Positions 5,656 to 56,240 of a stretch of DNA of 64,000 nucleotides are shown in pieces. Origin of the DNA: a virus (Duplodnaviria; Caudoviricetes); the IMG/VR virus record IMGVR_UViG_3300033073_001332, positions 155,554-219,553 of that record; one strand, 5' to 3'. The position numbers and the translations under genes are program-made. Each line of letters opens with the position of its first letter. Positions within the stretch are counted from its first letter, which is position 1. Below the pieces are notes generated by a model. It saw nothing but the letters and a program-made list of their open reading frames with translations. It made no database searches and was not told where the DNA came from.

Positions 5656-6564
5656 ATGGCATTAGGAACATATGGTATTGTAAGACCTTCGGATGTATCA
5701 CCAGCAGATGTTGATATCATATTACACTACACACCAAGTAGAGATGTTACGGATAATTTTCTTCTTAAAAAATTAAACTCACAAAGTGTTTTAACACCGT
5801 ATTATCATAATTCAGATACAGGTGGTAATGCAGGTGTTGAAGTTTTAGGTGGATTATACAACTTAAAATTACCTGCTAGTGAATTTAATAAAAAAGGAAT
5901 TTACACATTATACATTAAACCTGCCGAAATTAGAACAACAATTAACGATTGTGGGGTGTTATCGGCATTACCAAATGTTAAAGGTATTATTATCAACTTG
6001 AATGATGTACCATCACAATTTAGAAATAAATTCACAAATCAAGGTCTTGTTGGATTTAGAGTGGAATACTTAAATTCTGATGGTAGTAAAATACCTAATT
6101 TTTATAGAATAGTAACATCATCATTCTTTTGCGAACCAGTAACAACTGAACAAATTAATTCATCACAAAAGACAATAAGATATCGTTATGTTGATGGTGG
6201 AAGTGATTTAGTATTTTGTACGTTATCACCTTCATCCTCACCTACTAACAAACCAACCGCAACTCCATTCATTGGACAACCAAACCAAAAAATCATTGTA
6301 ACAAATACTTTTTTCAATCCAATCACTATTGATATCCAAATGGCTGACTACGATTTAGATACAATTGCAATCGCTCTTTATGGTAATCAAAGTAAGAGTA
6401 TGGAGGACGGAATTTACACTCTTTACGATAGTAATAACAATATCTATAAACAATATAACTTATTTGAGGTTAGAGATAACTTTAACGAGTTACTTTATGA
6501 AGTTAGACAAGACAGAGGTTCTAATATAGACTTCAGTAAAAACTTTACAAATATTATTACTTAA
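5656..6564 (+). CDS. Putative virion structural protein
   Basis: 302-aa ORF preceded by TATTTAT motif at 5639. Confidence 0.55.
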   Translation: MALGTYGIVRPSDVSPADVDIILHYTPSRDVTDNFLLKKLNSQSVLTPYYHNSDTGGNAGVEVLGGLYNLKLPASEFNKKGIYTLYIKPAEIRTTINDCGVLSALPNVKGIIINLNDVPSQFRNKFTNQGLVGFRVEYLNSDGSKIPNFYRIVTSSFFCEPVTTEQINSSQKTIRYRYVDGGSDLVFCTLSPSSSPTNKPTATPFIGQPNQKIIVTNTFFNPITIDIQMADYDLDTIAIALYGNQSKSMEDGIYTLYDSNNNIYKQYNLFEVRDNFNELLYEVRQDRGSNIDFSKNFTNIIT

Positions 6565-9500
6565 TGGCGAATAAGATTTTCTTTCCACCTATTGGTACTA
6601 ATACTTTCGCAGATAATCTTGTCGGAGTTCAGATTACTGATGCTGGTGGGTTAACACAAGGAAACTTCCAATTTACCACAGCAATATACGAAAAGTCAAA
6701 TCGTAACTTTGATACTGGTGTATTTTCAAGTCCATATACTTTAGAAAATATTAACGTAAATAGTATTGAAGAAGCAAGAAGAATTATTGAAAAAAACTTT
6801 AAAGTTTATCCTAATTATGATTTATCTGAGATAACAAGTTTTTCATTATATGGTTCGTTAGCTAAAAGACTTTCGGCATCTGCAATTAAAATAATTAACA
6901 ACTTCCCAGCGGCAATTGAAATAATTGCTTTACACCAATCAGGTCTCTTCACTGGAAGTACTGCATATAACATTACTTATAATTCAATAAACGATGAGAC
7001 CACTTTTGATATGGACTCAGCGTTATTTAGAAATCCATTTGGTGTTGATTTCTCGGTGAATGCTAAAAGAAATATTGAAGTACAACCATTTCCTGTTCAT
7101 CCAATAAGAGCGTTAACGACTGAGTTTGAAAACTATTCTATGTTCTTTGAAGATTTGGACAAAGAATTTCAACTAACATTTTTTGAACCAACACAAAGCT
7201 TAAGTGGTGGAACCGTAAGTGTTTCAGTAAGAGGGGACATGTTTAGTGGTACGACTGCAACAACAAGAAGTTTAATTTTAAAACCAACAAAGAGTAAAAC
7301 TTTAGAAATATTTGGAGATGCGTTTGATGAGGTTGAAAAGTTTTTACTTAATCAAAATAGTTTACCAAAATACACTTCAGTATTCTCTTATCCTGAATAC
7401 GATGGGACTACAGGTAAATACACATTATACAACAAGAGTATTACTTGGCCTATTAATAAGTTTTGGAATTTAGATATTACAAGTTCTGCGTTCAATCAAT
7501 ATTTGGATGATTTACAATTAGTTGCCGAAAGACTTGATGAATATAAAACAAACTTAATCAGTAGATTTTTAATTACAGGAGCATTCAAAGAATTTGATAC
7601 GGATGACCAAAAAATTGAAAAAGTATTACAAATCTATGGTAGAAGTTTTGATGAGGTTAAAAAATTCATAGACAGCTTAGCATACATGAATTCTGTTAAC
7701 TACCAAGTAGGTAACGACATACCATCACAATTATTATTCAATTTAGCACAAACTTTAGGTATTAACCCTAACATATCACCAATAACAAATGAAGGGTTCT
7801 TAGATTCAGTATTTAGTTCTAAATCACAACAAGTTTACGAGGGACAGGCAAATACTTTAACACCAACTGAACTTAATTATCAATACTATAGAAATTTGAT
7901 ATTAAATTCAGCTTACATGTACAAAACAAAAGGAACAAGACGTTCACTTGAGTACGTGATGAGGTTTATTGGGGCACCTGAAGCGTTAATGGAATTTAAC
8001 GAAATAATTTATGTTGCTGACACTAAAATAAACGTAGATAAATTTACTGAACAATATGCAACCATTTCAGGTGGTACCAAATATGTAACGGCACCTATTT
8101 TGGATTCTGCAAATATCTTTAGTATTCAAGGTAAAACGTACACAGGTTATACAAGTAGTGGTAGAATTAAATTAGTTAACACGACGTTAGATGATTACGG
8201 TATTGATAGTGATGGATACCCTAAAAGTCCGGCACAGACAGATTCTAATTTCTTTCAAAAAGGTGCAGGTTGGTTTGAACAAACACCGAAACATAGGTCA
8301 GCTCAAATTGCAGATAATGAAAACTCATCATTAAGTGGGTCAAATCCTTATCTTATAACAAAATTACAACCTTTTAATTTTGGTCAAGATTATATGAATA
8401 GTCTTAGACAATTCCCTGATATGAACGTCGGGTATACTCTAAGACGTGTTTCTGATAATCAAAAGTCTTGGGTTGTTAATGATGTTGGAACAAGAAAAAA
8501 TAACGATAATTTCAATGGAGTTGATTATTCAGTATCAAATGACAAGTTAGTTATTAACTCCAAGAATATGGAACTCTACATGAATATGGGTCAAGGTATT
8601 ACATATGATATATGGGATATGTCAGTAAAATACGATTACCCTATTCCTAATTCAGGTTTAACGGCACCTTATCCATATCCTGGAAATATTGATTGGACAC
8701 ACATCGACCCAAAACCAAAACAAAAAACTTTCTTTGAGTTTGCTCAAAGTTTCTATAACAACTTTATTAATGTAAGAAATAGACAAACAATAAGTGATGG
8801 TAAAACGGGAGGATACCCAACATTACAATCTGTTTTTTGGAATTACTTACAATCTGAACAGACGGTAGGGATTCCATCCAATAATTTCTCTTACCAAAAA
8901 ATGATTGACTACACCTTAGGTTTAGGTGATTATTGGCAACGTTTATTAGAGCAAGTAGTTCCTGGTACTTCATTGTGGTTAACAGGACAAAAAATGGAAA
9001 ACTCAATATTCCATAGACAAAAATATGTTTGGAGAAGACAAAGAGGTTGTCAGATTATTCCTGTGGCTTGTATTCCATGTAAGTATATGGGACAACCATT
9101 TGCGTACGATTGTATTGACCAAACATTACAATGTACTCTTGACGGAACACCTGCTCAAATTCTACAATCACTATTGGCTAATTTATTATCACAAAGTGGA
9201 TTAACTCAAAATATGTGTGATACAAATAGTATTGTATCTGAATGGTTTGTTGATTGTAGATTAGATAATCAAATACTTGTTCAAGAACAATTTTATACGG
9301 GTTATGGAATAAATGATTACCCATCCCAAACACAATTAATAAATGCAATAGATACATACTTAGTTGGGTTATATAATTACGGATTAAATTATTACTTTGC
9401 TGGTAATACCTTGATTGTAAGTAACTCGTCTTGTTATGATAATTTCTCAACAAGTACTTTATATTTAAACATAGGTTTGAATATTGATATTAATTGTACT

Positions 9501-9920
9501 CCACCATTAGTTACTCCAACTCCTACGCCGACCCCAACTCCTACACCAACACCAACTCCAATCTATACTGAGGTTAGTATGTATTTTGGTGCACCTGTAG
9601 CGTCACCATCTACGGTAACATTTGTATACAGAATTAATGGTGGTGCATGGATTAACATTAGTAATCAGGCGGTAGGAAACAAACCATCTACATTCCAAAA
9701 CTACCAACCTTATGGTACTTCTACGGTTGTTGGTGATGTAATTGAAATGGGAGTATTGAATTCTGGTGGATTTAATATAAGATTTGGTACGGGTAATAAT
9801 AGTGGTACATACACAGGATACTGTGGAATTAGTTCATACTATACTTATACTGTAGTAAGCGGTGTAAATAGTATTTACATAAACATCCAAGACACTGGTA
9901 GTGGATACGTAATATGTTAA
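6564..9920 (+). CDS. Baseplate wedge-like protein (P2 gpI-like motif) with C-terminal (TP)n linker
   Basis: YKTKGTRRSLEYVMRFIG resembles the KGT motif of P2 gpI-like baseplate proteins; TPTPTP repeat near C-terminus. Confidence 0.55.
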   Translation: MANKIFFPPIGTNTFADNLVGVQITDAGGLTQGNFQFTTAIYEKSNRNFDTGVFSSPYTLENINVNSIEEARRIIEKNFKVYPNYDLSEITSFSLYGSLAKRLSASAIKIINNFPAAIEIIALHQSGLFTGSTAYNITYNSINDETTFDMDSALFRNPFGVDFSVNAKRNIEVQPFPVHPIRALTTEFENYSMFFEDLDKEFQLTFFEPTQSLSGGTVSVSVRGDMFSGTTATTRSLILKPTKSKTLEIFGDAFDEVEKFLLNQNSLPKYTSVFSYPEYDGTTGKYTLYNKSITWPINKFWNLDITSSAFNQYLDDLQLVAERLDEYKTNLISRFLITGAFKEFDTDDQKIEKVLQIYGRSFDEVKKFIDSLAYMNSVNYQVGNDIPSQLLFNLAQTLGINPNISPITNEGFLDSVFSSKSQQVYEGQANTLTPTELNYQYYRNLILNSAYMYKTKGTRRSLEYVMRFIGAPEALMEFNEIIYVADTKINVDKFTEQYATISGGTKYVTAPILDSANIFSIQGKTYTGYTSSGRIKLVNTTLDDYGIDSDGYPKSPAQTDSNFFQKGAGWFEQTPKHRSAQIADNENSSLSGSNPYLITKLQPFNFGQDYMNSLRQFPDMNVGYTLRRVSDNQKSWVVNDVGTRKNNDNFNGVDYSVSNDKLVINSKNMELYMNMGQGITYDIWDMSVKYDYPIPNSGLTAPYPYPGNIDWTHIDPKPKQKTFFEFAQSFYNNFINVRNRQTISDGKTGGYPTLQSVFWNYLQSEQTVGIPSNNFSYQKMIDYTLGLGDYWQRLLEQVVPGTSLWLTGQKMENSIFHRQKYVWRRQRGCQIIPVACIPCKYMGQPFAYDCIDQTLQCTLDGTPAQILQSLLANLLSQSGLTQNMCDTNSIVSEWFVDCRLDNQILVQEQFYTGYGINDYPSQTQLINAIDTYLVGLYNYGLNYYFAGNTLIVSNSSCYDNFSTSTLYLNIGLNIDINCTPPLVTPTPTPTPTPTPTPTPIYTEVSMYFGAPVASPSTVTFVYRINGGAWINISNQAVGNKPSTFQNYQPYGTSTVVGDVIEMGVLNSGGFNIRFGTGNNSGTYTGYCGISSYYTYTVVSGVNSIYINIQDTGSGYVIC

Positions 9921-9928
9921 GATAAAAA

Positions 9929-12900
9929 ATGGCTTGTGTTTCAGGTTTAACAAATGGTGTTTATAGTTATATTGATTGTTGTGGTAATACTCAAACGGGT
10001 GTTTCCGTAGGTCAAAGTATTTGTTTAGATGAAACACTTACAGGGACATCTTTTGGTGTGTACATTGCAACAGGACAAACATGTACTGAGAATTGTAATC
10101 AAGGACCTTTAGATGTTAGTTTTTCAGTAACGGGAGTTTGTTCAGCAGCAACAGGTACCATTACATTTTACCCAACGGGTGGAATTTCACCTTATACTAT
10201 CGATAATACGTTTGACCCATCAATAAGTGCTCAAACGGGAACTACACAAATAACTTTCTCAGGTTTATCAGGAGGAACTTACGTCTTCAGATTGAATGAT
10301 AGTCAAGGTATTCAAAACAATGAACTTTTTATAAACGTCACAATAAGTGGATGTTTTGATGCTAAAATATATAATACAAGTGGAACTACTTGTGGGTTAG
10401 ATAATGGTTATTTTGAAGTAAGTGCAGCAACCTCAGGTTCACCATATACGATACTTCTTTACAAAGATGGTGTTTATGATTCTACGGTCGGGGCTGCAAC
10501 TCTACCACAACCTTTTAGTAATTTAGCGAGTGGTATATATTACGCTATTGTTGTTGATAATGCTTTAGCAACTGCATATACCGAAAACACCGTAATAAGT
10601 GCAACAACCGCAGTAGATTTTGGATTTTGGAAAGTTGATACTTCTAATTGTGATTTGAATTGGGGTAAGTTAGCAGTAACCGGCATGACAGGTACAGGAC
10701 CATACACTTACTTATGGGATAATGGACAAACAACTCAAATCATTACAGGTCTTACTCAAGGGACTTATAGTTGTACGGTAACAGATAGTTTAGGGTGTCA
10801 AACAACAAAAAGTGAAACTATTGGAGTAGCACAACCTTTAGGTTTAGCTTTTCAAACGGCAGTCCAACCAAGTTGTTTTCAAAATGATGGTTCATTAACT
10901 TTCACCGTAACAGGTGGAACACTACCGTTTTATTATTCAGCAACCACAGGTTTAGTTGGTTATACGTTAGATAACGAATTTACAATCTCAGGGTTAAGTG
11001 CTGGAAATTACGATGTATTAGTAAGGGATGCGAGTTATTGTCAAACAATAGTTAGTGGTAACTTATTAACACCAGGAAGTTTTGACCTTGTTGGTGTCTC
11101 TGTTACGAACCCGGTTTGTAATATAAATGGAGGGTCTATTCAAATTAATATTGGAGGAGCTAACCAATCTTACAATTATACTTTATCGGGTCAAACTTCA
11201 GGGAGTGTTCAATCAAACGTAAGTCAAAGTCAAACATATACTTTTAGTAATTTAGTTACTGACAACTATTTGATAACAATTTCAGGTAGCGGAAGTAGTT
11301 GTGTTTACCGACAAGAAGTAAGTGTCACCTCAACACCTAAATTTAGTATAAGTGCAACTACAACAGGTTCAACTTGTGGTCAATTAAATGGAACTGCGGT
11401 CATTCAAGTAAGTACGGGTTACACATCACCTTTAGATTATATCTTAAGTAATGGTGATACATTAATCGATTCACCATTATCTGCAATTACATATACAGAC
11501 TTAGCCGCGGGTTCTTACACAATAAGTGTTACTGATGCTGATGGTTGTGTAGTGACAACAGGATTTACAATATCGACTGGTGGTAGTTTAGTTACGGGAT
11601 TATCTACTACAAATTGTAATGGAACAAATAATGGAACGGCAACGGTAAACATTTATGATGGTTCACCACCATTCACATATAGTTGGTCAAATGGTCAAAC
11701 AGGGTCAACTGCAACAAACTTAAGTGGAGGGACATATGATGTAACAATAACAGACGCATCAGGATGTACCCAAACACAAAACTTTACAATAACATGTATT
11801 GGTAATTTGATTACATCTTATCAAACTTTCAATTTATGTACAAACACCTTTACGACAACATCAAGTAATCAAAGAGGTTTAATTGAAATGTTGAATGAAG
11901 GTTATTTAGATATTACGTCGGGTTATACGGGATGTTCATTTAATTCGGCTGAACTTACTTGTGAAGTTGAAATAAATGGAACAGCCTATACACAAACATT
12001 CTATACAGCAACAACTTTAAATGATGTTCCACAAGATACTTTATGGCAAACAACAATTGAGGATATCTTATCGGGAATACCACAGATTCAAAGTTATGAG
12101 GTTAATCTATTAAATAATACGCTAACAATATATTCAAATTGTGATGGGGATGAAGACCCATTATCAGATGCTGATTTTAGTTTAAGTTTGAGTATTGTTT
12201 ATGATGTTACATGTACAGGAACTTTATACCCTGCACCTCCAGCACCTCCTGTAACATACGAAGCATTATATACATCAACATCATTTGCTAATGTTAGTAG
12301 TAGTATTTGGCCGATATCTGGTGTAGAATCTGGAACTATATCATATTCAGGGGCACCTAATGAAATTCTCACAATGAGAGTGACATTACCAAATCTGATT
12401 AATTTTTCAGGAGGAACGTCAATAAACGGTATTAATTACAATGAGTATAGTGCTAGTACATTTACCGCATCAACAAATAGTTCAGGGGTCGGGACTTTAA
12501 CATTAATATCTAGTGCCACAACACACACCAATGTTTACGGACAAAAAATTCATTATTTAGAAATATTAAATTCAAGTTCAGGTTCCACTATTGGACCACC
12601 GGGAAATGGTTCTTCATGGTTAAGATGGAGATATACTAACCCAATTTCTGGTAGTCAAAATTTAATTGGAGGTAATACCATTTCTGCAACAACAAGTGGT
12701 GATGCGTGTAACAACATAACTTATGATACATCATATAGAATAATTAATACTGGTTTAACTATTAATACTGGCTCTACCGTATACTCAGGAACAACAGGCG
12801 CTATTTTAGTAAATGGAAACAATAAGTGGATTTCTGTTTATTATCCGGCTGCTCCAAGTGGTCTTGGGTATTATTCAGGATTCACGTATGGTACTAAATA

Positions 12901-12955
12901 CGTAATTCAAGTTGATGCTTCAGGGGTGATAACAAATGTACAAATCTGCCCATAA
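9929..12955 (+). CDS. SprB-repeat, Cys-rich virion/adhesin-like protein
   Basis: Repeated GxxPYTYxWxNG...GLxxGTYxxTVTDxxGC units typical of SprB repeats. Confidence 0.7.
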   Translation: MACVSGLTNGVYSYIDCCGNTQTGVSVGQSICLDETLTGTSFGVYIATGQTCTENCNQGPLDVSFSVTGVCSAATGTITFYPTGGISPYTIDNTFDPSISAQTGTTQITFSGLSGGTYVFRLNDSQGIQNNELFINVTISGCFDAKIYNTSGTTCGLDNGYFEVSAATSGSPYTILLYKDGVYDSTVGAATLPQPFSNLASGIYYAIVVDNALATAYTENTVISATTAVDFGFWKVDTSNCDLNWGKLAVTGMTGTGPYTYLWDNGQTTQIITGLTQGTYSCTVTDSLGCQTTKSETIGVAQPLGLAFQTAVQPSCFQNDGSLTFTVTGGTLPFYYSATTGLVGYTLDNEFTISGLSAGNYDVLVRDASYCQTIVSGNLLTPGSFDLVGVSVTNPVCNINGGSIQINIGGANQSYNYTLSGQTSGSVQSNVSQSQTYTFSNLVTDNYLITISGSGSSCVYRQEVSVTSTPKFSISATTTGSTCGQLNGTAVIQVSTGYTSPLDYILSNGDTLIDSPLSAITYTDLAAGSYTISVTDADGCVVTTGFTISTGGSLVTGLSTTNCNGTNNGTATVNIYDGSPPFTYSWSNGQTGSTATNLSGGTYDVTITDASGCTQTQNFTITCIGNLITSYQTFNLCTNTFTTTSSNQRGLIEMLNEGYLDITSGYTGCSFNSAELTCEVEINGTAYTQTFYTATTLNDVPQDTLWQTTIEDILSGIPQIQSYEVNLLNNTLTIYSNCDGDEDPLSDADFSLSLSIVYDVTCTGTLYPAPPAPPVTYEALYTSTSFANVSSSIWPISGVESGTISYSGAPNEILTMRVTLPNLINFSGGTSINGINYNEYSASTFTASTNSSGVGTLTLISSATTHTNVYGQKIHYLEILNSSSGSTIGPPGNGSSWLRWRYTNPISGSQNLIGGNTISATTSGDACNNITYDTSYRIINTGLTINTGSTVYSGTTGAILVNGNNKWISVYYPAAPSGLGYYSGFTYGTKYVIQVDASGVITNVQICP

Positions 12956-13527: not shown

Positions 13528-13554
13528 TTATTTCTACAATATTTATAAAGTGAT

Positions 13555-16500
13555 ATGCCAACTTATAATAGACTAACCGATAGGTCTTTAGCGACCGGAG
13601 TAACACTAAATGATTTAATTCATATAGTAATAACGGGTGATACGTCACAAAACGCCGCGGGTTCATCATATAAAGCAACAATTCGACAATTAGCAAATGC
13701 AATTACTGGGGCGACAGGAACTGCAGGTACTGCCGGTACATCTGGAACAAACGGAACTTCAGGTACTAGTGGTATTGGAACAAACGGAACTTCAGGTACT
13801 AGTGGTATTGGAACAAACGGAACTTCAGGTACTAGTGGTGTTGGTACTAACGGAACTTCAGGTACTAGTGGTGTTGGTACTAACGGAACGTCAGGGACTA
13901 ATGGGACAAACGGAACGTCAGGAACTAATGGTACTAGTGGTATTTCATTTATTTGGAGAGGTAATTGGGACAATTTAATTAATTATGATTTGAATGACGT
14001 TGTGTACTATAATGGTAGTTCATACATAAATGTAGACGTTTCTCACGATAATCAAGGTATGACTCCACCTTCATCCGGTATATGGGAATTAATGGTCGAA
14101 AGTGGTACATCAGGAACAAGTGGTGCTAGTGGAACTAGTGGGAGCTCAGGACTAAACGGAACATCGGGCACGAATGGTACAAGTGGAAGTAGCGGTTCAT
14201 CAGGTTTATCGGGAACAAACGGTACTAGTGGGACTGATGGGTCTTCAGGGATGTCTGGTATTGACGGAGCGTTAAGCGCTAGATGGTTATTTGGGTCAAC
14301 ATACACACCACCTACATCACCTGTAGTGGCGAATGGATATTTTTATACTGATAATGTAAATTTAAATACTATAACTGAATTTTATATTGCGGTCGTAGGT
14401 GAAAATACCGTTGATTATACAACCATGTTTATAAAATTAGCGGCTAGCGCTTCAATTATTGCAACAATTACTGATGTTACAAATAATTCAATTCTTGGTA
14501 GTTGGGATATTCAATCAATTACAAATCAAGGGTTATCATACTCTTTTGTAACTAATAATACATTAGCCTCTAATGGAACACTAACACCTGGTTCATCTTA
14601 TTCTATAAGTTTTTCTATTGTAGGTGGTAGTGGTTCTTCAGGTAGTTCTGGTTCAAGTGGAACAAGTGGTTCTTCAGGTAGTTCTGGAACTTCAGGTTCA
14701 AGTGGTTCAAGTGGAAGCTCAGGACTAAATGGAACATCAGGTTCTTCAGGTTTATCAGGGACAAATGGAAGTTCAGGTTCAAGTGGAACAAGTGGTTCTT
14801 CAGGTAGTTCTGGAACTTCAGGTTCAAGTGGTTCAAGTGGAACATCAGGTTCATCAGGAACAGGGTTTAATGCGGTCCAAACACCTGCTGTTACAAGAGT
14901 TTTAACATCTGATGGAACAACAACAGGTGCAATTGCACAATCAGGATTAACATATAACGGCAGTCAATTAACTGTTAGCGGTTTAACCTATACGAGCGGA
15001 ATTACATCTATTAGTGGAATCATATTCAAACAAGTAACAATTAATAGTTCTTATACTGCAACGACTCAAGACTACATGATTGATGTAACAGGAGGAACAT
15101 TCACCGTATCACTACCAACTGCGGTAGGACAACAAGGTAGGTTATATGTAATTAAAAACAATGGTGGGGGTGCAGTTACGGTAGACCCGTTTGGGAGCGA
15201 AACAATTGATGGGAAACCTTTTGTAATATTAGGTGAAACAAACTCAATTCAAATAGCAAGTAATGGTACAGAATGGGTGGCATTAGGGTATAACATATCA
15301 ACGGTAAACTCATCAACGGGTGTATTTGAATTTTCAGGTTTAACTATAGCGTCACCAACCACATTTACCGTTGCCCCCGTTAAGGGTTGGATTGTGGATG
15401 ATACAAGTAATCCATTATCACCACAACTTTATTATGTGTCATATAGTGGTGGAACACATACTGCGAGTTACGTAACAACAAATACGGGAACTTGGATTTA
15501 TTTAACAAGTGGAGGGACAATATCCCAACAACCTACCGCGTTAACAGATATTCAAAGAAGACAAAATATATTTTTAGGTAAATTAGGTCATGCAAATAAA
15601 ACAAGTATCATTAATGCGTTTAGCCAACCTGATTTTGTTTTATCACCTTTGGCACAACTTCGTGATGTGTTCGACCCAATTAGTTTAATTAATGAGGGGG
15701 TTCAGACATCAGCAAATGGCACAAATTTATCATTTAATACAAGTGCGGGATATCTTCACGGATTGGGTATTAATTTTGCAAATGATACATTAAACCCTAA
15801 TACATTATATATATCAGGGACATCACCATGTACTTTTCAATATAGAACACAAACAGGAGGAACATCATCAAACGTCACACTTATAGACCCTACAAAATAT
15901 GATGTTGGAGGTGTAATTACAAGTTTATCAGGAACTAAAGCAACCAATCAAAGAATTTATTTAGTACAAAATGGGGTGTTTAGGGTTCAATATGGACAGA
16001 CCCAATACTCAACATTAGCACAGGCAGTTGCAGGTATCGCAACTGAACAATATGTAGAATTTGTTAACTTTCAAACAAATGGTATTTTAATCGGTGTATT
16101 ATCAGTTTTAAGTTCGGCAACGGATTTATCAGACTCAAGTAAAGCGTTATTTTTTAACGTATCGAAATTTGGTGACGCAACAGGTGCTGCCGGAGGAACT
16201 CCAACAACAAATTTACAACAAGCATATAATAACTCATCAGAACCTGAAATAATCATTAATTCAACATTAGGTGCATTATCAATTAAAAATGGTAGTGGTA
16301 ATCCGGACATCACTACAAATATATTTGAAGGTGTCGACTCAACAAATAATGTAACATCTTATATAACTGCAAGGGGCGATGTAACCGGGTCTAGGTTTAC
16401 TACCACTGGTATAATTAGTGGAGGTTCGGTAACGTCACCAACCATATCAGCAACTACATTATCCGCAAATACAATTTCATCACCTACAATATCTGCAACT

Positions 16501-17016
16501 ACTTTATCTGCAAATACAATTTCATCACCAACAATAACATCACCAACAATATCGGCAACCACACTTTCAGCAACAACAATAGTTTTAAATGGGTCTAATA
16601 TAACATCATCTTGGACATCATACACACCTATTTGGTCATCAAATGGTACCCAACCTGTCTTAGGTAATGGTTCACTTACAGGAGCATACAAAGTTATTGG
16701 TAAAACATGTTTTGTACGTGCAAGATTAGCACTTGGAACAACATCAACAGGTGGTAGTGGACATTGGTTATTTAGTTTACCTTTTTCTGCTTCTACTTCA
16801 GATGGTATACAATTCCCATGCTCAATGCTTGATAACGGAAATGCGTGGTATGAGGGGACAGTTAATGGAACATATGCTGGACTTACTGATAAAACTGCAA
16901 TCATAGCTAAATCTAGTGGAACAACAAGCTCATCAGAAGCAGTAACTGCAACTATGCCATTCGTATGGGGAGCTGCGGATAGTCTACAATTTAATGGTTC
17001 ATACGAAATTGCTTAA
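13555..17016 (+). CDS. Tail fibre-like protein with Gly-X-X (GTS/GTN/GSS) repeats
   Basis: Three Gly-X-X repeat blocks; WRGNWDNLINYDLNDVVYYNGSSY module; VSLP...YVIKNNG...ETIDG fibre motif; TATTTATA at 13540. Confidence 0.75.
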   Translation: MPTYNRLTDRSLATGVTLNDLIHIVITGDTSQNAAGSSYKATIRQLANAITGATGTAGTAGTSGTNGTSGTSGIGTNGTSGTSGIGTNGTSGTSGVGTNGTSGTSGVGTNGTSGTNGTNGTSGTNGTSGISFIWRGNWDNLINYDLNDVVYYNGSSYINVDVSHDNQGMTPPSSGIWELMVESGTSGTSGASGTSGSSGLNGTSGTNGTSGSSGSSGLSGTNGTSGTDGSSGMSGIDGALSARWLFGSTYTPPTSPVVANGYFYTDNVNLNTITEFYIAVVGENTVDYTTMFIKLAASASIIATITDVTNNSILGSWDIQSITNQGLSYSFVTNNTLASNGTLTPGSSYSISFSIVGGSGSSGSSGSSGTSGSSGSSGTSGSSGSSGSSGLNGTSGSSGLSGTNGSSGSSGTSGSSGSSGTSGSSGSSGTSGSSGTGFNAVQTPAVTRVLTSDGTTTGAIAQSGLTYNGSQLTVSGLTYTSGITSISGIIFKQVTINSSYTATTQDYMIDVTGGTFTVSLPTAVGQQGRLYVIKNNGGGAVTVDPFGSETIDGKPFVILGETNSIQIASNGTEWVALGYNISTVNSSTGVFEFSGLTIASPTTFTVAPVKGWIVDDTSNPLSPQLYYVSYSGGTHTASYVTTNTGTWIYLTSGGTISQQPTALTDIQRRQNIFLGKLGHANKTSIINAFSQPDFVLSPLAQLRDVFDPISLINEGVQTSANGTNLSFNTSAGYLHGLGINFANDTLNPNTLYISGTSPCTFQYRTQTGGTSSNVTLIDPTKYDVGGVITSLSGTKATNQRIYLVQNGVFRVQYGQTQYSTLAQAVAGIATEQYVEFVNFQTNGILIGVLSVLSSATDLSDSSKALFFNVSKFGDATGAAGGTPTTNLQQAYNNSSEPEIIINSTLGALSIKNGSGNPDITTNIFEGVDSTNNVTSYITARGDVTGSRFTTTGIISGGSVTSPTISATTLSANTISSPTISATTLSANTISSPTITSPTISATTLSATTIVLNGSNITSSWTSYTPIWSSNGTQPVLGNGSLTGAYKVIGKTCFVRARLALGTTSTGGSGHWLFSLPFSASTSDGIQFPCSMLDNGNAWYEGTVNGTYAGLTDKTAIIAKSSGTTSSSEAVTATMPFVWGAADSLQFNGSYEIA
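13720..14862 (+). repeat. Coding Gly-X-X repeat blocks
   Basis: GGN-ACN/TCN triplet repeats, including near-exact 24-nt units. Confidence 0.85.
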
Positions 17017-17063: not shown

Positions 17064-18263
17064 ATGAAAATATTTGTTCAAATTGCATCTTATCGTGACC
17101 CCGAACTTTTACCAACCATCAGAGATTGTATCCATAAAGCAAAGTATCCTGAAAATTTAACATTTGGAATTTGTTGGCAACATGATGAAACCGAATCGAT
17201 GGAAGAATTTGCAAATGACGAAAGATTTAAAATCTTAGACTATCATTGGAGTTGGAGTAAAGGTCTTTGTTGGGCTCGTTCTGAAATTCAAAAACTATGG
17301 AATGGTGAAGAGTATACGATGCAATTAGATTCACATCACAGATTTTTACAAGATTGGGATGTTGAATTAATTGAAATGATGAAACTTACAGGTTCAGAAA
17401 AACCAATCATCACAACATATGCCGGAATGTACCGACCAAGTGATAATCAATTATTGAATATTGAACCATACAAAATGGTGGCATCTAATTTCACACCAGG
17501 AGGAACAATTCTTTTTAGACCACACGTTATTGAAAATTGGCAAACTTTAGATAAACCAATCCCTGCAAGATTTGTAAGCGGACACTTCTTTTTTACTATT
17601 GGAAAACATTGTGAGGAATACAAGTATGACCCCAATTTATATTTTGCCGGTGATGAAATCAGTTTATCCATTAGGTCATTTACTTTAGGTTATGATTTAT
17701 TTCACCCTTATAAGACGGTTATTTGGCATGAATACACAAGAGAAGGTAGGACAAAACATTGGACAGACTTCAACGATGAAAACAAAAACAAAGGTGTTGT
17801 TGAAAAGCCTTGGTGGATTATGGATAATGAATCCAAAAGAAGATTAAGGCACATGTTACAAGAGGAAGATAATAATATTGACCTTGAAGAATACGGATTA
17901 GGTAATGTAAGAACACATAGTGATTATGAACTTTATGCTGGTATTAATTTTAAAGAAAGAGTTTTACATGAAAACACTATAAAAGGAATAGACCCACCTG
18001 TTAATGATAATAGTGATTGGTATTTAAAAACTAAAAACACATATAATTTAGAACTTGATATTCCTTTTACTGAAAACTTTAAATTCATTTATATTGGTAT
18101 TGAAGACGATAATGGAAATGTGATACATCGACAAGATTTAACGTCATACACCCCCAAGATTAAAGTTAAAATTGAAAGTTTTTCTAAACCACATAAGTGG
18201 GTATATTGGGTTAACAACATAAACGATGAATGGGTAAATAGACAAGATATTTTATTTTTATAA
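17064..18263 (+). CDS. GT60-family (Skp1/Gnt1-like) polypeptide alpha-GlcNAc transferase
   Basis: IFVQIASYRDPEL, GLCWAR, MQLDSHHRF (DxH), YDPNLYFAGDEI, WHEY motifs match GT60/PF11397-type enzymes. Confidence 0.85.
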   Translation: MKIFVQIASYRDPELLPTIRDCIHKAKYPENLTFGICWQHDETESMEEFANDERFKILDYHWSWSKGLCWARSEIQKLWNGEEYTMQLDSHHRFLQDWDVELIEMMKLTGSEKPIITTYAGMYRPSDNQLLNIEPYKMVASNFTPGGTILFRPHVIENWQTLDKPIPARFVSGHFFFTIGKHCEEYKYDPNLYFAGDEISLSIRSFTLGYDLFHPYKTVIWHEYTREGRTKHWTDFNDENKNKGVVEKPWWIMDNESKRRLRHMLQEEDNNIDLEEYGLGNVRTHSDYELYAGINFKERVLHENTIKGIDPPVNDNSDWYLKTKNTYNLELDIPFTENFKFIYIGIEDDNGNVIHRQDLTSYTPKIKVKIESFSKPHKWVYWVNNINDEWVNRQDILFL

Positions 18264-18320
18264 ACCAAAGGGTAATAAAATAGATTTTTGATTATTTATA
18301 TAATAAAGTTTCACACTTAA

Positions 18321-19919
18321 ATGGCTAATGTAATTTTTAGTAGTTGTTGTTATAACCTCGTATATAGTGCCACGAGTTTTTTTGGTACAAGTACGGTAGG
18401 TACGGTTCACAGCGTTAGCGGTGATACAAACATGCCTGATGGTTGTTATACAATTATGTCATCAGGTACGGGTACCTTAATTACTTTTGATGGTTCTTCT
18501 ACGGTCGCTTCAGGGTGTACAAGTTTACAATGCATTGATTGTTGCTCAAGTACTTTATGTATTAGTGTACCAACTACATTATATAGTGGATATAGTGGAA
18601 ACTACACGGTTCAAGGAGGACATAACTCATACCCATATTGGACAGGAGGAACATCAAGTATAGGATACTTACATTATAACGGAACTTATTGGTGTTTAAG
18701 TAATTCTTTAAGTGGTTCTTGTATATTCTTTGGGTCAAACCCAACATTTTCAGTATGTCCTGATTTAGATGAAACGGTAATGACAACAGGTGCTTGTGTT
18801 CCAACACCAACACCATATGACCCGTGTTCTGTTTTGGATTTTGATGTTTTGTTGGAATGCAATATCCCAACTCCAACACCTACACCGACCCCAACTCCTA
18901 CACCTACACCAACCCCAACGCCAACTCCAACAGCAAATATTTGTAGTGCATTTACGGCTAATATAACATATCAAACCGCAACACCTACACCAACTCCAAC
19001 ACCGACACCCACACCAACCCCAACACCGACGGTTACACCTTCGGCAGATACGGTTACGTTTGTGGTTGATAATGGGAACTTTGTCTGTGCTACGGTTAAA
19101 GAATTGGTTGATTGTTATACGGGAACTAAATATTATGTTTCAGGACCATTGTTATTAACAGGTTCTACTGCAACAACTATCACAACAACAGGAACAACAA
19201 TCTATGGTGTGATAAATAATGATATAAGATGTGCAACATATACACAAAATGTTAATGGAAGTGCAAATGCATCAATTCAATATATAATTTCAGCATATAC
19301 TGGTTATTGTTCGGTTTCTTGTGTTACTCCAACACCTACTCCAACTCCTACTCCAACACCAACTCCAACTCCTACACCAACACCAACTCCGACTCCAACT
19401 TACGCAGCTGGAACCGTGTTTGTATTTACATCTTGTACTTCTAATAGTATGATAACACAAACATCATACCCGCCAACTAACCTTACTATTGGTAATGTAT
19501 TAAAAACTTTATCAGGTGATTGTTATAGTTATGTTGGAAACTATGTGGGATATGTTGCTCCGTCAGGATATGTGGTTGCAAATATAAATCAATTTACTGC
19601 AACTACAGCCACGACATACACTGATTGCGTTGATTGTTTAACCGTGACTGCAGCCACTACATCGTATAACACATGGAAAGGAAGTTTTGGATTTGCCTTG
19701 AATTGTCCTGTTTGTCAAATAACTGACTTTGGTAGAAAAAATACTTTCTACACATCTAATCTAATATCTGAAATTACTACAGGTGTCTACATCTTTAGTG
19801 ATTCAGGATTAACTAAACCGGTAACTGAAGATTACCTACAATACGGAAACTTTATTTATAGAGTCGATGTAAGTGGTAAATTAACACAATACTGTACCGT
19901 AAACGGAAATTGTAAATAA
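18321..19919 (+). CDS. Cys-rich virion protein with three (PT)n mucin-like tracts
   Basis: PTPTPT tracts separating Cys-rich modules; TATTTATA at 18293. Confidence 0.65.
18867..19400 (+). repeat. Three coding (Pro-Thr)n hexanucleotide tracts
   Basis: Degenerate CCN-ACN repeats. Confidence 0.85.
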
Positions 19920-20858: not shown

Positions 20859-22457
20859 ATGGGTCAATTAAGTGGTAATAGTTGTAATATAATAACCCTT
20901 TTTCCTTTGGGATTAGAATGTAATAGTGTTAATTCGTCAACACCACAAACAACAAATGGTTTGATTTCGTTATATATTACAGGTGGAACACCACCTTATA
21001 ATGTTACATGGAATAATGGTCAACAAGGAACATTATTAACAAATCTTGGACCTGGTGATTATACAGCAACCGTAGTTGATTTTTATGGTGATTTTACAGG
21101 AACAACAACATGTACGGTTGGGTATGATAGTTTCTATTTAGAAGAGTTTGAAGATTGTTCTAATTCTGGAAGTTACATATATTATTTAGCTGACTTATAT
21201 AACCCATTCAGTGCGTCTTCTGTTTACAGATTAACAACACAGACAGGTTGTTGGACAAGTAGTGGAACTACATTACACACAGGTCAAACATATTATGATT
21301 ATTTTGCTGTGAGTTCGGCAGGACCTTACACAGGTTGTACAGAGTGTTTACCACCGGTTACACCTACACCAATCATACCAAGTGGATTATGTTTAACACA
21401 AACCGTTAACTCAACACCTACATTAATTAATTTCTACTCAGCAGGGACACTTAATGGTATGATGAGTTGGACTAGTGTAACACCAAGTTATAAAATATAT
21501 TATAGTTCAGGAACAACAAAATGGATGTTGAGTGGATGGACAAATGGTTCAGTATTCAAACAATCACCAACATCACCACCAACAGGAAGTTGGACCGTAA
21601 CAGGACCAAGTGCGTTTACAACAACAATTACGGTATTATCTGGTAATTGTTCTTCAGCACCATTGAAAGTTAAAGTAAATTCTACAAACCCAATATGTGC
21701 AAATCAAACAAATGGGTCTATGATTTTAACAGGAAGTGGAGGAGTCCCTACCTACACCTACTCATTGAATGGCGTTAATTACCAATCATCAAACATCTTC
21801 TCAAGTTTAGGTGTCGGTACATATACGGTATATATTAAAGATTCGGTTGGTAACGTATATTCAACAACCCAAACTTTAGTACCACAACAAAGTGTACAAA
21901 ATTATGTGGTTAGTTTGAATCTTAACGAACAAACTCCACAATCATTTGGTAACGCAACAAGTAAAACAACAAACTGGTCAATATCGGTTTCACCGGCGTT
22001 ACCTACAGGAACAACGGTAAACATGACACTCACATTCAACGTTAATTATACCGCAAATACAAATACATCAACGATTGTTCCTACAATAACAAATTCAATA
22101 ACTTCCACAACTTCTCCAAATGCGGTTGTAACACAAACAAGTGTAAGTACAACGACAGGTACAAGTACGGCAAGACCAAGTTGTACTAATGGATTCACTA
22201 GAACAAGTGCATATACTGAAACATATAGTGTACAATTAACAAATAATGGTTCGGCGAATGGTACGATTGTTCAATATGTGAACACTCCTTGTGTTGCTAC
22301 AGGTTGTGTATTAAATGGATTTATAGTTGATAGTGTTTCTATACAAAACATTTCAATTACACCATCACTTTGTAGAAGTATTAATAAAAATGTTACACCA
22401 CAGAAAACACAACTTAATAAAACAGGTAATTTATGTCCTGCGGCGAGTGGAGCGTAA
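20859..22457 (+). CDS. SprB-repeat, Thr-rich virion protein
   Basis: GGTPPYNVTWNNG...LGPGDYTATVVD and GGVPTYTYSLNG...LGVGTYTVYIKD. Confidence 0.65.
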   Translation: MGQLSGNSCNIITLFPLGLECNSVNSSTPQTTNGLISLYITGGTPPYNVTWNNGQQGTLLTNLGPGDYTATVVDFYGDFTGTTTCTVGYDSFYLEEFEDCSNSGSYIYYLADLYNPFSASSVYRLTTQTGCWTSSGTTLHTGQTYYDYFAVSSAGPYTGCTECLPPVTPTPIIPSGLCLTQTVNSTPTLINFYSAGTLNGMMSWTSVTPSYKIYYSSGTTKWMLSGWTNGSVFKQSPTSPPTGSWTVTGPSAFTTTITVLSGNCSSAPLKVKVNSTNPICANQTNGSMILTGSGGVPTYTYSLNGVNYQSSNIFSSLGVGTYTVYIKDSVGNVYSTTQTLVPQQSVQNYVVSLNLNEQTPQSFGNATSKTTNWSISVSPALPTGTTVNMTLTFNVNYTANTNTSTIVPTITNSITSTTSPNAVVTQTSVSTTTGTSTARPSCTNGFTRTSAYTETYSVQLTNNGSANGTIVQYVNTPCVATGCVLNGFIVDSVSIQNISITPSLCRSINKNVTPQKTQLNKTGNLCPAASGA

Positions 22458-22487
22458 TAAAAAAATAAAAAAAGATATTTATAAAAT

Positions 22488-25307: not shown

Positions 25308-25346
25308 CTTTTTAGTATATTAATGTATTTATAATAAAAAAATATT

Positions 25347-38960: not shown

Positions 38961-38981
38961 ATCTAATGATATTTATAAAGT

Positions 38982-49897: not shown

Positions 49898-50001
49898 GAC
49901 TTTAAAGTTTTTAAGGTTTATTATATCTATAAATATTTTGTATTATATAATTTATATAGGTCAAAAGATAAATCAATTCTATTTTTAGATATTTATAACA
50001 T

Positions 50002-56218: not shown

Positions 56219-56240
56219 ATTTTACAAGGTATTTATAATT

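Follow-up and report, generated by a model that had tools for sequence, protein, structure and literature searches.

A GT60 glycosyltransferase gene linked to proline-threonine repeat proteins in phage genomes: a candidate system for O-glycosylation of phage linkers

Why would a phage carry a glycosyltransferase (GT) gene of family GT60 in a region that appears to specify fibres and adhesins, and what would the encoded enzyme modify? The question is raised by a 64,000-nucleotide stretch of DNA (hereafter, the window), which is the terminal 64 kb of the 219.5-kb IMG/VR virus record IMGVR_UViG_3300033073_001332; the record is estimated to be about 75% complete and has a G+C content of about 32%. 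The gene lies at positions 17064..18263 of the window, on the plus strand, and the gene directly downstream encodes a protein with three long proline-threonine (PT) tracts. Here we establish the family membership, fold, motif and soluble nature of the enzyme, the linkage of its gene to genes for PT proteins, and a strong constraint on the PT tracts. The reading that we prefer is that GT60 would sugar-coat the (PT)n linkers of phage proteins, with the PT tracts as the acceptor, and we put its probability at roughly 0.58.

The open reading frame (ORF) encodes 399 amino acids (aa) and matches PF11397, 'Glycosyltransferase (GlcNAc)' (GlcNAc, N-acetylglucosamine), with an E value of 2.7e-67 and 228.1 bits against a cut-off of 21 (189 bits in the whole-genome scan), and a match to phrog_24687 spans its full length. 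A first-pass annotation of this DNA had recognised a GT60-type enzyme by the motifs ASYRD, DSH and YDPNLYFAGDEIS; all of these are present in the ORF at the coordinates it gave (ASYRD falls at residues 8 to 12 and DSH at residues 89 to 91 of the protein), and its assignment is borne out by the hidden Markov model (HMM) match to PF11397. The DSH motif (D89-S90-H91; 17328..17336, plus strand) is a DxH motif, the form that the DxD metal and nucleotide-sugar site takes in GT27 and GT60. Across 45 aligned homologues, with identities as low as 35%, no substitution occurs at H91, E198 or H222, and conservation of D89 and S90 is 90% or higher. According to a survey of GT-A enzymes, only GT27 and GT60 have DxH in place of DxD, and O-glycosylation of Ser/Thr in polypeptides is common to the two families (PMC7185993). 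His222 (17727..17729, plus strand) occupies an invariant column and, judged from the GT-A 'C-His' position, is a candidate C-terminal His metal ligand.

The AlphaFold2 (AF2) model of the enzyme, with a predicted local distance difference test score (pLDDT) of 95.1, consists of a GT-A domain (approximately residues 1 to 321) followed by a small C-terminal beta-sandwich (residues 325 to 397). When the model was compared with the PDB using Foldseek, the top 50 matches were all mucin-type polypeptide N-acetylgalactosamine transferases (ppGalNAc-Ts; best E value 5e-12). VIA-align, an independent aligner, placed mouse GalNAc-T1 first (Z 22.0, root-mean-square deviation 3.2 Å, 273 residues) and Toxoplasma gondii GalNAc-T3 second (Z 19.9), with generic GT-A folds at 17.7 or below. 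Searches of PDB sequences with the single protein and with a 45-sequence profile returned nothing meaningful; the structural kinship is seen by fold comparison only. No Pfam match to a ricin domain was obtained, and in the full-length model residues 325 to 397 at the C-terminus form six beta strands. The enzyme has no membrane segment and no signal peptide (maximum 19-residue hydropathy of 0.69) and, since it lacks a hydrophobic segment, it should act in the cytoplasm. Three computationally testable features of GT60 membership were found (HMM score, DxH motif, and a GT-A fold nearest to GT27). From the family, the motif and the modelled fold, we consider the enzyme very probably a GT60 transferase of the polypeptide type, and family membership would further point to UDP-GlcNAc (UDP, uridine diphosphate) as the donor and to retaining (alpha) transfer. 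The fold comparison also bears on a different kind of acceptor: the enzyme might instead act on a glycan or lipid intermediate of a phage-directed polysaccharide, or on the host envelope, with its adjacency to PT genes reflecting the insertion of accessory genes into variable fibre regions. Both aligners argue against this proposal, placing polypeptide transferases clearly above polysaccharide GT-A enzymes; other evidence on it comes from the gene contexts described below.

GT60 relatives are numerous, falling into about 6,400 clusters at 90% identity with 4,374 representatives at 50% identity, which indicates that the family is large and common in metagenomes. The top-scoring distant relatives in the representative library (P0124-P0136) are giant proteins of 900 to 2,460 aa, each containing between two and four GT60 domains in tandem. 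Among GenBank phages, a protein search matched the enzyme only to four jumbo phages of Xanthomonas/Stenotrophomonas, at 35 to 38% identity, and a nucleotide search of the region against 50,697 GenBank phages gave no match.

The candidate acceptor, a presumed virion protein of 532 aa, is encoded directly downstream of GT60 (18321..19919, plus strand). It is rich in Cys (28 residues) and Thr (106 residues), and its translation and AF2 model describe beta-rich domains joined by three (PT)n linkers, namely (PT)11 at 18867..18932, (TP)8T at 18981..19031 and (TP)12T at 19326..19400, all on the plus strand and together containing 33 Thr. PT-type tracts occur in only 3 of the 209 ORFs of the whole 219-kb genome. 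The overall pLDDT of the model is 69, with the domains at approximately 70 to 89 and the PT tracts below 50; because the beta-rich domains are separated by these low-confidence segments, the tracts would be exposed. The model retrieved no solved fold at a Z of 5 or more, and its BFVD matches were uncharacterised phage proteins only; Pfam and PHROG likewise gave no match for this protein or for most of the neighboring ORFs. Its homologues are from uncultured phages only, and atlas look-ups gave viral clusters only.

Flexible linkers of the ordinary kind tend to change more rapidly in evolution than the domains on either side. In 25 homologues of the PT protein (approximately 50 to 89% identity), tract position and register are kept, as is nearly the full tract length, and the first tract is almost invariant in both register and length even in homologues of about 50% identity. 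Pairwise identity reaches 87.7% in PT-tract columns versus 53.5% elsewhere in the protein, and 59% of the identical tract residues use different codons, versus 42 to 55% elsewhere. High identity despite differing codons indicates that the tracts are old and held by protein-level selection, not products of recent repeat homogenisation. The tracts are also half proline, and one branch of GT60 modifies a hydroxyproline of Skp1 as a soluble cytoplasmic enzyme (PMC8724618); by analogy with this Skp1-Gnt1 system, GlcNAc might be placed on hydroxyproline, so that the Pro of the tract rather than the Thr would be modified. This is very unlikely here, as no 2-oxoglutarate-Fe(II) prolyl hydroxylase (PF13640) was found in the 219.5 kb, about 75% of the genome, in a search that did not extend to other prolyl 4-hydroxylase families or to the host.

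Among the outcomes that the first-pass annotation had named as refuting its proposal was a lack of correlation between GT60 and PT tracts in relatives; this outcome was not obtained, as the correlation proved to be strong and to recur in many lineages. It was examined in four ways: forward, in reverse, in cellular genomes and by phylogeny. The forward set comprised 74 viral loci encoding GT60 relatives, in 17 gene-context clusters. The largest cluster (40 loci) shares the synteny of the window, and the PT protein adjoins GT60 in 40/40; these loci, being of shared ancestry, were counted as a single observation. In the 34 non-syntenic loci (16 clusters), ORFs with PT or proline-serine tracts made up 13 of the 183 ORFs within three genes of GT60 versus 1 of the 465 located farther away (odds ratio of 35, p 6e-7). 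By a broader measure based on Thr/Pro-rich sequence windows, 9/16 independent clusters were positive versus 4/238 control loci. The PT proteins of these other contexts have no similarity to that of the window and carry unrelated domains (VWA, InlB B-repeat and glycine-rich).

For the reverse test, viral loci were picked solely by tract-encoding DNA and then scored for GT60. A GT60 gene was present in 9 of the 120 loci selected for (PT)8 (1.14 Mb in all), and in these positive loci the PT protein is encoded one to nine genes from GT60 on the same strand. Seven of the nine enzymes are only 27 to 37% identical to that of the window, and they are mostly no more than 38% identical to one another. 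Control loci contained GT60 in a total of 1/356 cases: 0/120 for (PA)8, 0/118 for collagen-like repeats of (GXX)11 or longer, and 1/118 for poly-Thr(10). The difference between the (PT)8 set and the combined (PA)8 and collagen-like sets was significant (p 4e-5).

The collagen-like control bears on a second reading of the locus, in which GT60 would glycosylate phage structural proteins elsewhere, at Thr/Ser of the collagen-like fibre or at a short surface motif, and the PT tracts would be mere co-occurring linkers. As the first-pass annotation had described, GT60 sits between a Ser/Thr-rich Gly-X-X fibre and the three-tract PT protein. The GT60 gene is directly 3' of the fibre gene, which encodes a collagen-like Gly-Thr/Ser-X tail-fibre protein of 1153 aa (13555..17016, plus strand; PF01391, E value of 7e-20, and several tail-fibre PHROGs) and offers an alternative candidate acceptor; collagen-like tracts are also found 5' of GT60 in part of the syntenic family. 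However, in many syntenic relatives GT60 has no collagen tract next to it, yet all 40 have the PT protein, and the non-syntenic contexts showed no collagen tracts. With GT60 in 0/118 viral loci chosen for collagen-like repeats, the idea that GT60 simply lies near any fibre gene is disfavoured as well. Modification at another site would also leave the unusual conservation of the PT tracts unexplained, and we regard it as rather unlikely.

Full-length cellular homologues of the enzyme were found in Verrucomicrobiota (52 to 56% identity), Acidobacteriaceae, Alphaproteobacteria and other groups. In 80 bacterial loci, all 11 Thr/Pro-rich ORFs lay within 3 kb of GT60 (11/501 versus 0/702 ORFs, p 6e-5). 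Phage-type proteins are among these 11, including a tail sheath, a crAss-like muzzle C-domain, and BNR/fn3 and ConA-like proteins; since several of the Thr/Pro-rich neighbors are of phage type, many of the 80 loci are probably prophages. A contig of Azospirillum lipoferum Sp59b (L682:13070-15175) encodes a tail-sheath protein with a Thr/Pro tract 1.8 kb from GT60 and probably belongs to a contractile injection system or a prophage. When the trait 'Thr/Pro-rich neighbour' is mapped onto a tree of 121 GT60 sequences, at least 21 changes are needed, 15 of which are forced by well-supported branches; the link between GT60 and Thr/Pro-rich proteins thus appears repeatedly within the family and is no single accident of inheritance.

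Several observations weigh against the PT tracts as the acceptor. The first-pass annotation had concluded that the phage O-glycosylates its own tail linkers, and while the family, the fold and the PT correlation all favor this, the link is not universal: 7/16 independent phage contexts have no Thr/Pro-rich protein within 10 kb of GT60. Among five GT60-positive records searched whole, four had no (PT)5 in the available part, the records being 7 to 63% complete, and in a large Acidobacteriaceae clade TP-rich neighbors appear in only 1 of 31 rows. Three syntenic contigs that are about 10% complete (L455, L456 and L464) keep PT tracts of 12 to 36 residues with no GT60 at the site. The GT60 slot of these three is filled by a reverse-strand ORF of 195 to 200 aa; the contigs are short, and GT60 may be elsewhere. 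Presence or absence of GT60 within this phage family is uninformative, as complete relatives without GT60 in the fibre module carry it elsewhere. In one complete relative with a relocated GT60, 9 of 11 (PT)4 tracts are no more than about 5 kb from the gene; another complete relative has Thr/Pro-rich proteins beside GT60, with the strict PT tracts far off. The homologue in jumbo phage XacN1 sits among replication genes, beside a carbamoyltransferase and a GT9 gene. In the reverse test, the control sets differ somewhat in GC content from the (PT)8 set (0.41 to 0.48 versus 0.44). The place of the PT protein in the virion is presumed from gene order alone, its domains matching no solved fold, and the conservation of the linkers could serve rod length alone. 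Lastly, the phage has at least two other candidate glycosylation systems. GT60 is thus one of several candidates for the glycosylation of proteins, its product may be extended, and the glycan is not necessarily a lone GlcNAc.

One of these systems is encoded in the same genome approximately 55 to 77 kb before the window (G000:C1:78,000-101,000; L530, L531), in a minus-strand glycan-synthesis locus of about 23 kb. This locus encodes three GT2 enzymes, a GT1-like enzyme, a GDP-mannose 4,6-dehydratase, a DegT aminotransferase, an epimerase, NeuB, a short-chain dehydrogenase/reductase, a class IV aminotransferase, a STELLO-like GT, a NodU/CmcH carbamoyltransferase, GT11, GT10 and a GT2+GT4 fusion. 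GT60 is thus not the only glycosylation gene of the phage, which qualifies the first-pass description of it as the sole recognisable enzyme inside the 24-kb module.

Additional candidate glycan genes are found beside GT60 in its relatives. In many of them, GT60 is followed, with an ATGA stop-start overlap, by a gene for a protein of 265 to 279 aa that has no family assignment and is 60 to 78% identical across unrelated phage contexts (L005:11194-11991, L019:11191-12003, L025:7982-8785 and L031:11176-12015). This partner has acidic GT-A-like motifs (YEDGSD and HYEDD), and an atlas look-up with the 265-aa form returned a weak lead to a 'putative glycosyltransferase'; on that weak lead, it may be a second glycosyltransferase. 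No copy of the partner was found in the genome of the window, and the closest relative likewise has no partner of any kind at its GT60 site. Other cassettes that follow GT60 contain glycosyltransferase-PHROG proteins, GT2, UDP-galactopyranose mutase (Glf) and an FkbM methyltransferase (including L019:12000-13103, L067:6564-7661 and their neighbors). The downstream content of the cassettes varies among relatives, and GT60 is consistently the first gene, as expected of a priming enzyme, which we take it to be. By analogy with the mucins of Trypanosoma cruzi, the Glf cassettes suggest O-glycans that contain galactofuranose (Galf).

These gene contexts also inform the proposal that the acceptor is a glycan, a lipid or the host envelope rather than a protein. 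The 23-kb locus, with its many GTs and sugar-nucleotide pathways, would suit such an acceptor, as would the carbamoyltransferase and GT9 gene adjoining the XacN1 homologue and the many contexts in which GT60 is found in multi-GT cassettes without a nearby PT protein. The constant first position of GT60 in its cassettes speaks against it, as does the solubility of the enzyme; no flippase or polymerase genes were noticed beside GT60, although no systematic search for them was made. The PT enrichment, in addition, holds for near versus far genes within loci and against collagen-fibre loci. Taken with the fold comparison, this makes a non-protein acceptor unlikely.

With the PT tracts as the acceptor, a soluble, cytoplasmic, metal-dependent, retaining enzyme of the GT60 polypeptide N-acetylhexosamine (HexNAc) transferase lineage would use a host UDP-sugar, most likely UDP-GlcNAc and presumably late in infection, and would transfer the sugar to Thr hydroxyls of exposed (PT)n linkers in newly made phage proteins. 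The first candidate target would be the 532-aa protein encoded directly downstream, with its presumed location in the virion, and a probable second target would be the (TP)8 tract of ORF 6564-9920. In related phages, the further transferases and the UDP-galactofuranose mutase of the GT60-headed cassettes would extend the first sugar. Since the phage of the window has no cassette partner, it would make either a single HexNAc or a glycan extended via the distant glycan locus. The outcome would be a mucin-like sleeve, the likely physiological role of which would be to hold the linker extended and protease-resistant. More tentatively, and with the balance somewhat against it in our estimate, prokaryotic and phage GT60s might constitute a widespread cytoplasmic form of mucin-type O-glycosylation, with a PT 'sequon', HexNAc priming and swappable extension cassettes, that parallels the eukaryotic GT27/GT60 machinery and is possibly its origin.

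The ORF with the second candidate acceptor tract (6564..9920, plus strand) encodes a protein of 1118 aa and unknown family, whose translation contains (TP)8 at 9513-9560, where the first-pass annotation had also reported a (TP)n tract. It belongs to a run of densely packed large ORFs, all on the plus strand, that extends from 16 to 24695. The ORFs recognisable in this run encode the collagen-like fibre, two SprB-repeat proteins, a weak PKD-domain protein and one virion-structural PHROG match. That GT60 is the only recognisable enzyme of a 24-kb structural module, as had been claimed, holds to the extent that it alone among these ORFs matched an enzyme in Pfam or PHROG, the rest having PKD, SprB-repeat, collagen or virion-structural matches or none. 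The 'structural module' itself is an assignment from few profile matches and gene order, and on that basis it is reasonable to view the first 24 kb as a structural/adhesin module. One SprB-repeat protein of 532 aa (20859..22457, plus strand; PF13573, E value of 6.5e-10; phrog_26672, virion-structural) lends the module this character, and Pfam identified the other (PF13573) at 9929-12955 on the plus strand. SprB is the repeat of the Flavobacterium gliding adhesin, and its presence in these two ORFs points to a Bacteroidota host or to host-acquired adhesin modules. Elsewhere in the same genome (G000:C1:28662-38252), an ORF of 3196 aa contains a Gly-X-X collagen-like tract of about 2,800 residues.

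From 24702 onward, after the 24-kb module, the window encodes a RuvC-like resolvase, a primase, an exonuclease and SbcCD. Phage GTs often modify DNA bases, and the homologue in XacN1 has DNA polymerase and RNase H genes nearby and adjoins a carbamoyltransferase; GT60 might accordingly be a DNA glycosyltransferase that adds sugar to hydroxymethylated bases as protection against restriction. We consider this the least likely of the readings, and a highly improbable one. The fold and motif are those of the polypeptide-transferase lineage, the gene belongs to the structural module and co-occurs with genes for PT proteins, and no gene of the thymidylate-synthase/dCMP-hydroxymethylase family (PF00303) was found in about 75% of the genome, TET/JBP-type enzymes having been outside that search.

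A short motif, TATTTATA, is found at 18293..18300 on the plus strand, 20 nt 5' of the ATG of the PT-protein gene, and the same motif is found at 13540-13547, just 5' of the fibre gene. It recurs at 22476-22483, 25326-25333, 38970-38977, 49990-49997, 56230-56237 and other positions, 8 to 28 nt 5' of many start codons; no exact copy precedes the GT60 gene. The number of copies (20, versus 12 expected) is not significant by itself, and it is the positions, not the count, that suggest a candidate phage promoter.

Virion glycosylation by phage-encoded enzymes is already known; the GT60 lineage and (PT)n acceptors are new as candidates for it. In the searched literature that mentions GT60, we found no function assigned to a bacterial or phage member, and viral GT60s appeared in gene lists only; no paper was found that describes the GT27/GT60 lineage or (PT)n acceptors in phage virion glycosylation. 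If the PT tracts are indeed the acceptor, phage-encoded virion O-glycosylation would reach from mycobacteriophages to abundant aquatic phages and to another enzyme lineage, and the PT linkers of phage fibres would be modification sites, not passive spacers. There would be a possible parallel, in viruses or bacteria, to the GlcNAc-Galf chemistry of trypanosome mucins, and a one-enzyme, one-tag cytoplasmic O-glycosylation system would become available in bacteria.

The nearest phage precedent is that of mycobacteriophages Che8, Corndog and Myrna, in which phage-encoded cytoplasmic GTs glycosylate the phages' own capsid and tail-tube proteins (Freeman et al. 2023, as reported in the available parts of PMC12363180 and PMC12582341). 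That system shares with ours a soluble GT encoded by the phage, here by a gene that lies between fibre-like genes on the same strand; it differs in host phylum and in its capsid and tail-tube targets, and the available parts of these sources describe no PT-repeat acceptor or GT60. Giant viruses (the chloroviruses, and mimivirus with its collagen glycosylation) also have their own cytoplasmic glycosylation machinery for structural proteins, and a GT60 domain is listed in PkV RF01; these, however, are eukaryotic viruses with other enzymes and linkages, and the viral GT60 domain has no assigned function. Gnt1 of Dictyostelium and Toxoplasma, which modifies Skp1, resembles the phage enzyme as a soluble cytoplasmic GT60 whose glycan is extended by further soluble GTs (PMC8724618), but it requires a prolyl 4-hydroxylase and a single Skp1 proline, whereas the candidate acceptors of the phage are long repeats and no prolyl 4-hydroxylase of PF13640 was found in the 219.5 kb of the record.

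The closest solved folds are those of animal GT27 enzymes (GalNAc-T1, -T2 and -T4; Z 22.0, Foldseek E value of 5e-12), which start O-glycans at Ser/Thr residues of mucin repeats rich in Pro and share with the phage enzyme both DxH and a two-domain layout with a C-terminal non-catalytic domain. Sequence identity to them is only 12 to 15%, no ricin-type lectin domain was detected in the phage enzyme, and the phage donor would presumably be UDP-GlcNAc, not UDP-GalNAc. In protists, the mucin-initiating polypeptide alpha-GlcNAc-transferases belong to GT60 itself (PMC8724618). These enzymes (T. cruzi TcOGNT1/2 and the Dictyostelium Golgi pp-alphaGlcNAcT) reside in Golgi membranes and modify secreted mucins, whereas the phage enzyme is soluble, would act on phage proteins in the bacterial cytoplasm and has an extra C-terminal beta-sandwich of approximately 75 residues. 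PF11397 and DxH are common to both, and the characterised protist members place GlcNAc-alpha1-O on Thr in Thr/Pro-rich mucin-like domains. TcOGNT1 makes GlcNAc-alpha1-O-Thr on T. cruzi mucins, and T. cruzi extends this O-GlcNAc with Galf (PMC9472816), an extension paralleled by the UDP-galactopyranose mutase that is paired with GT60 in the cassettes of related phages.

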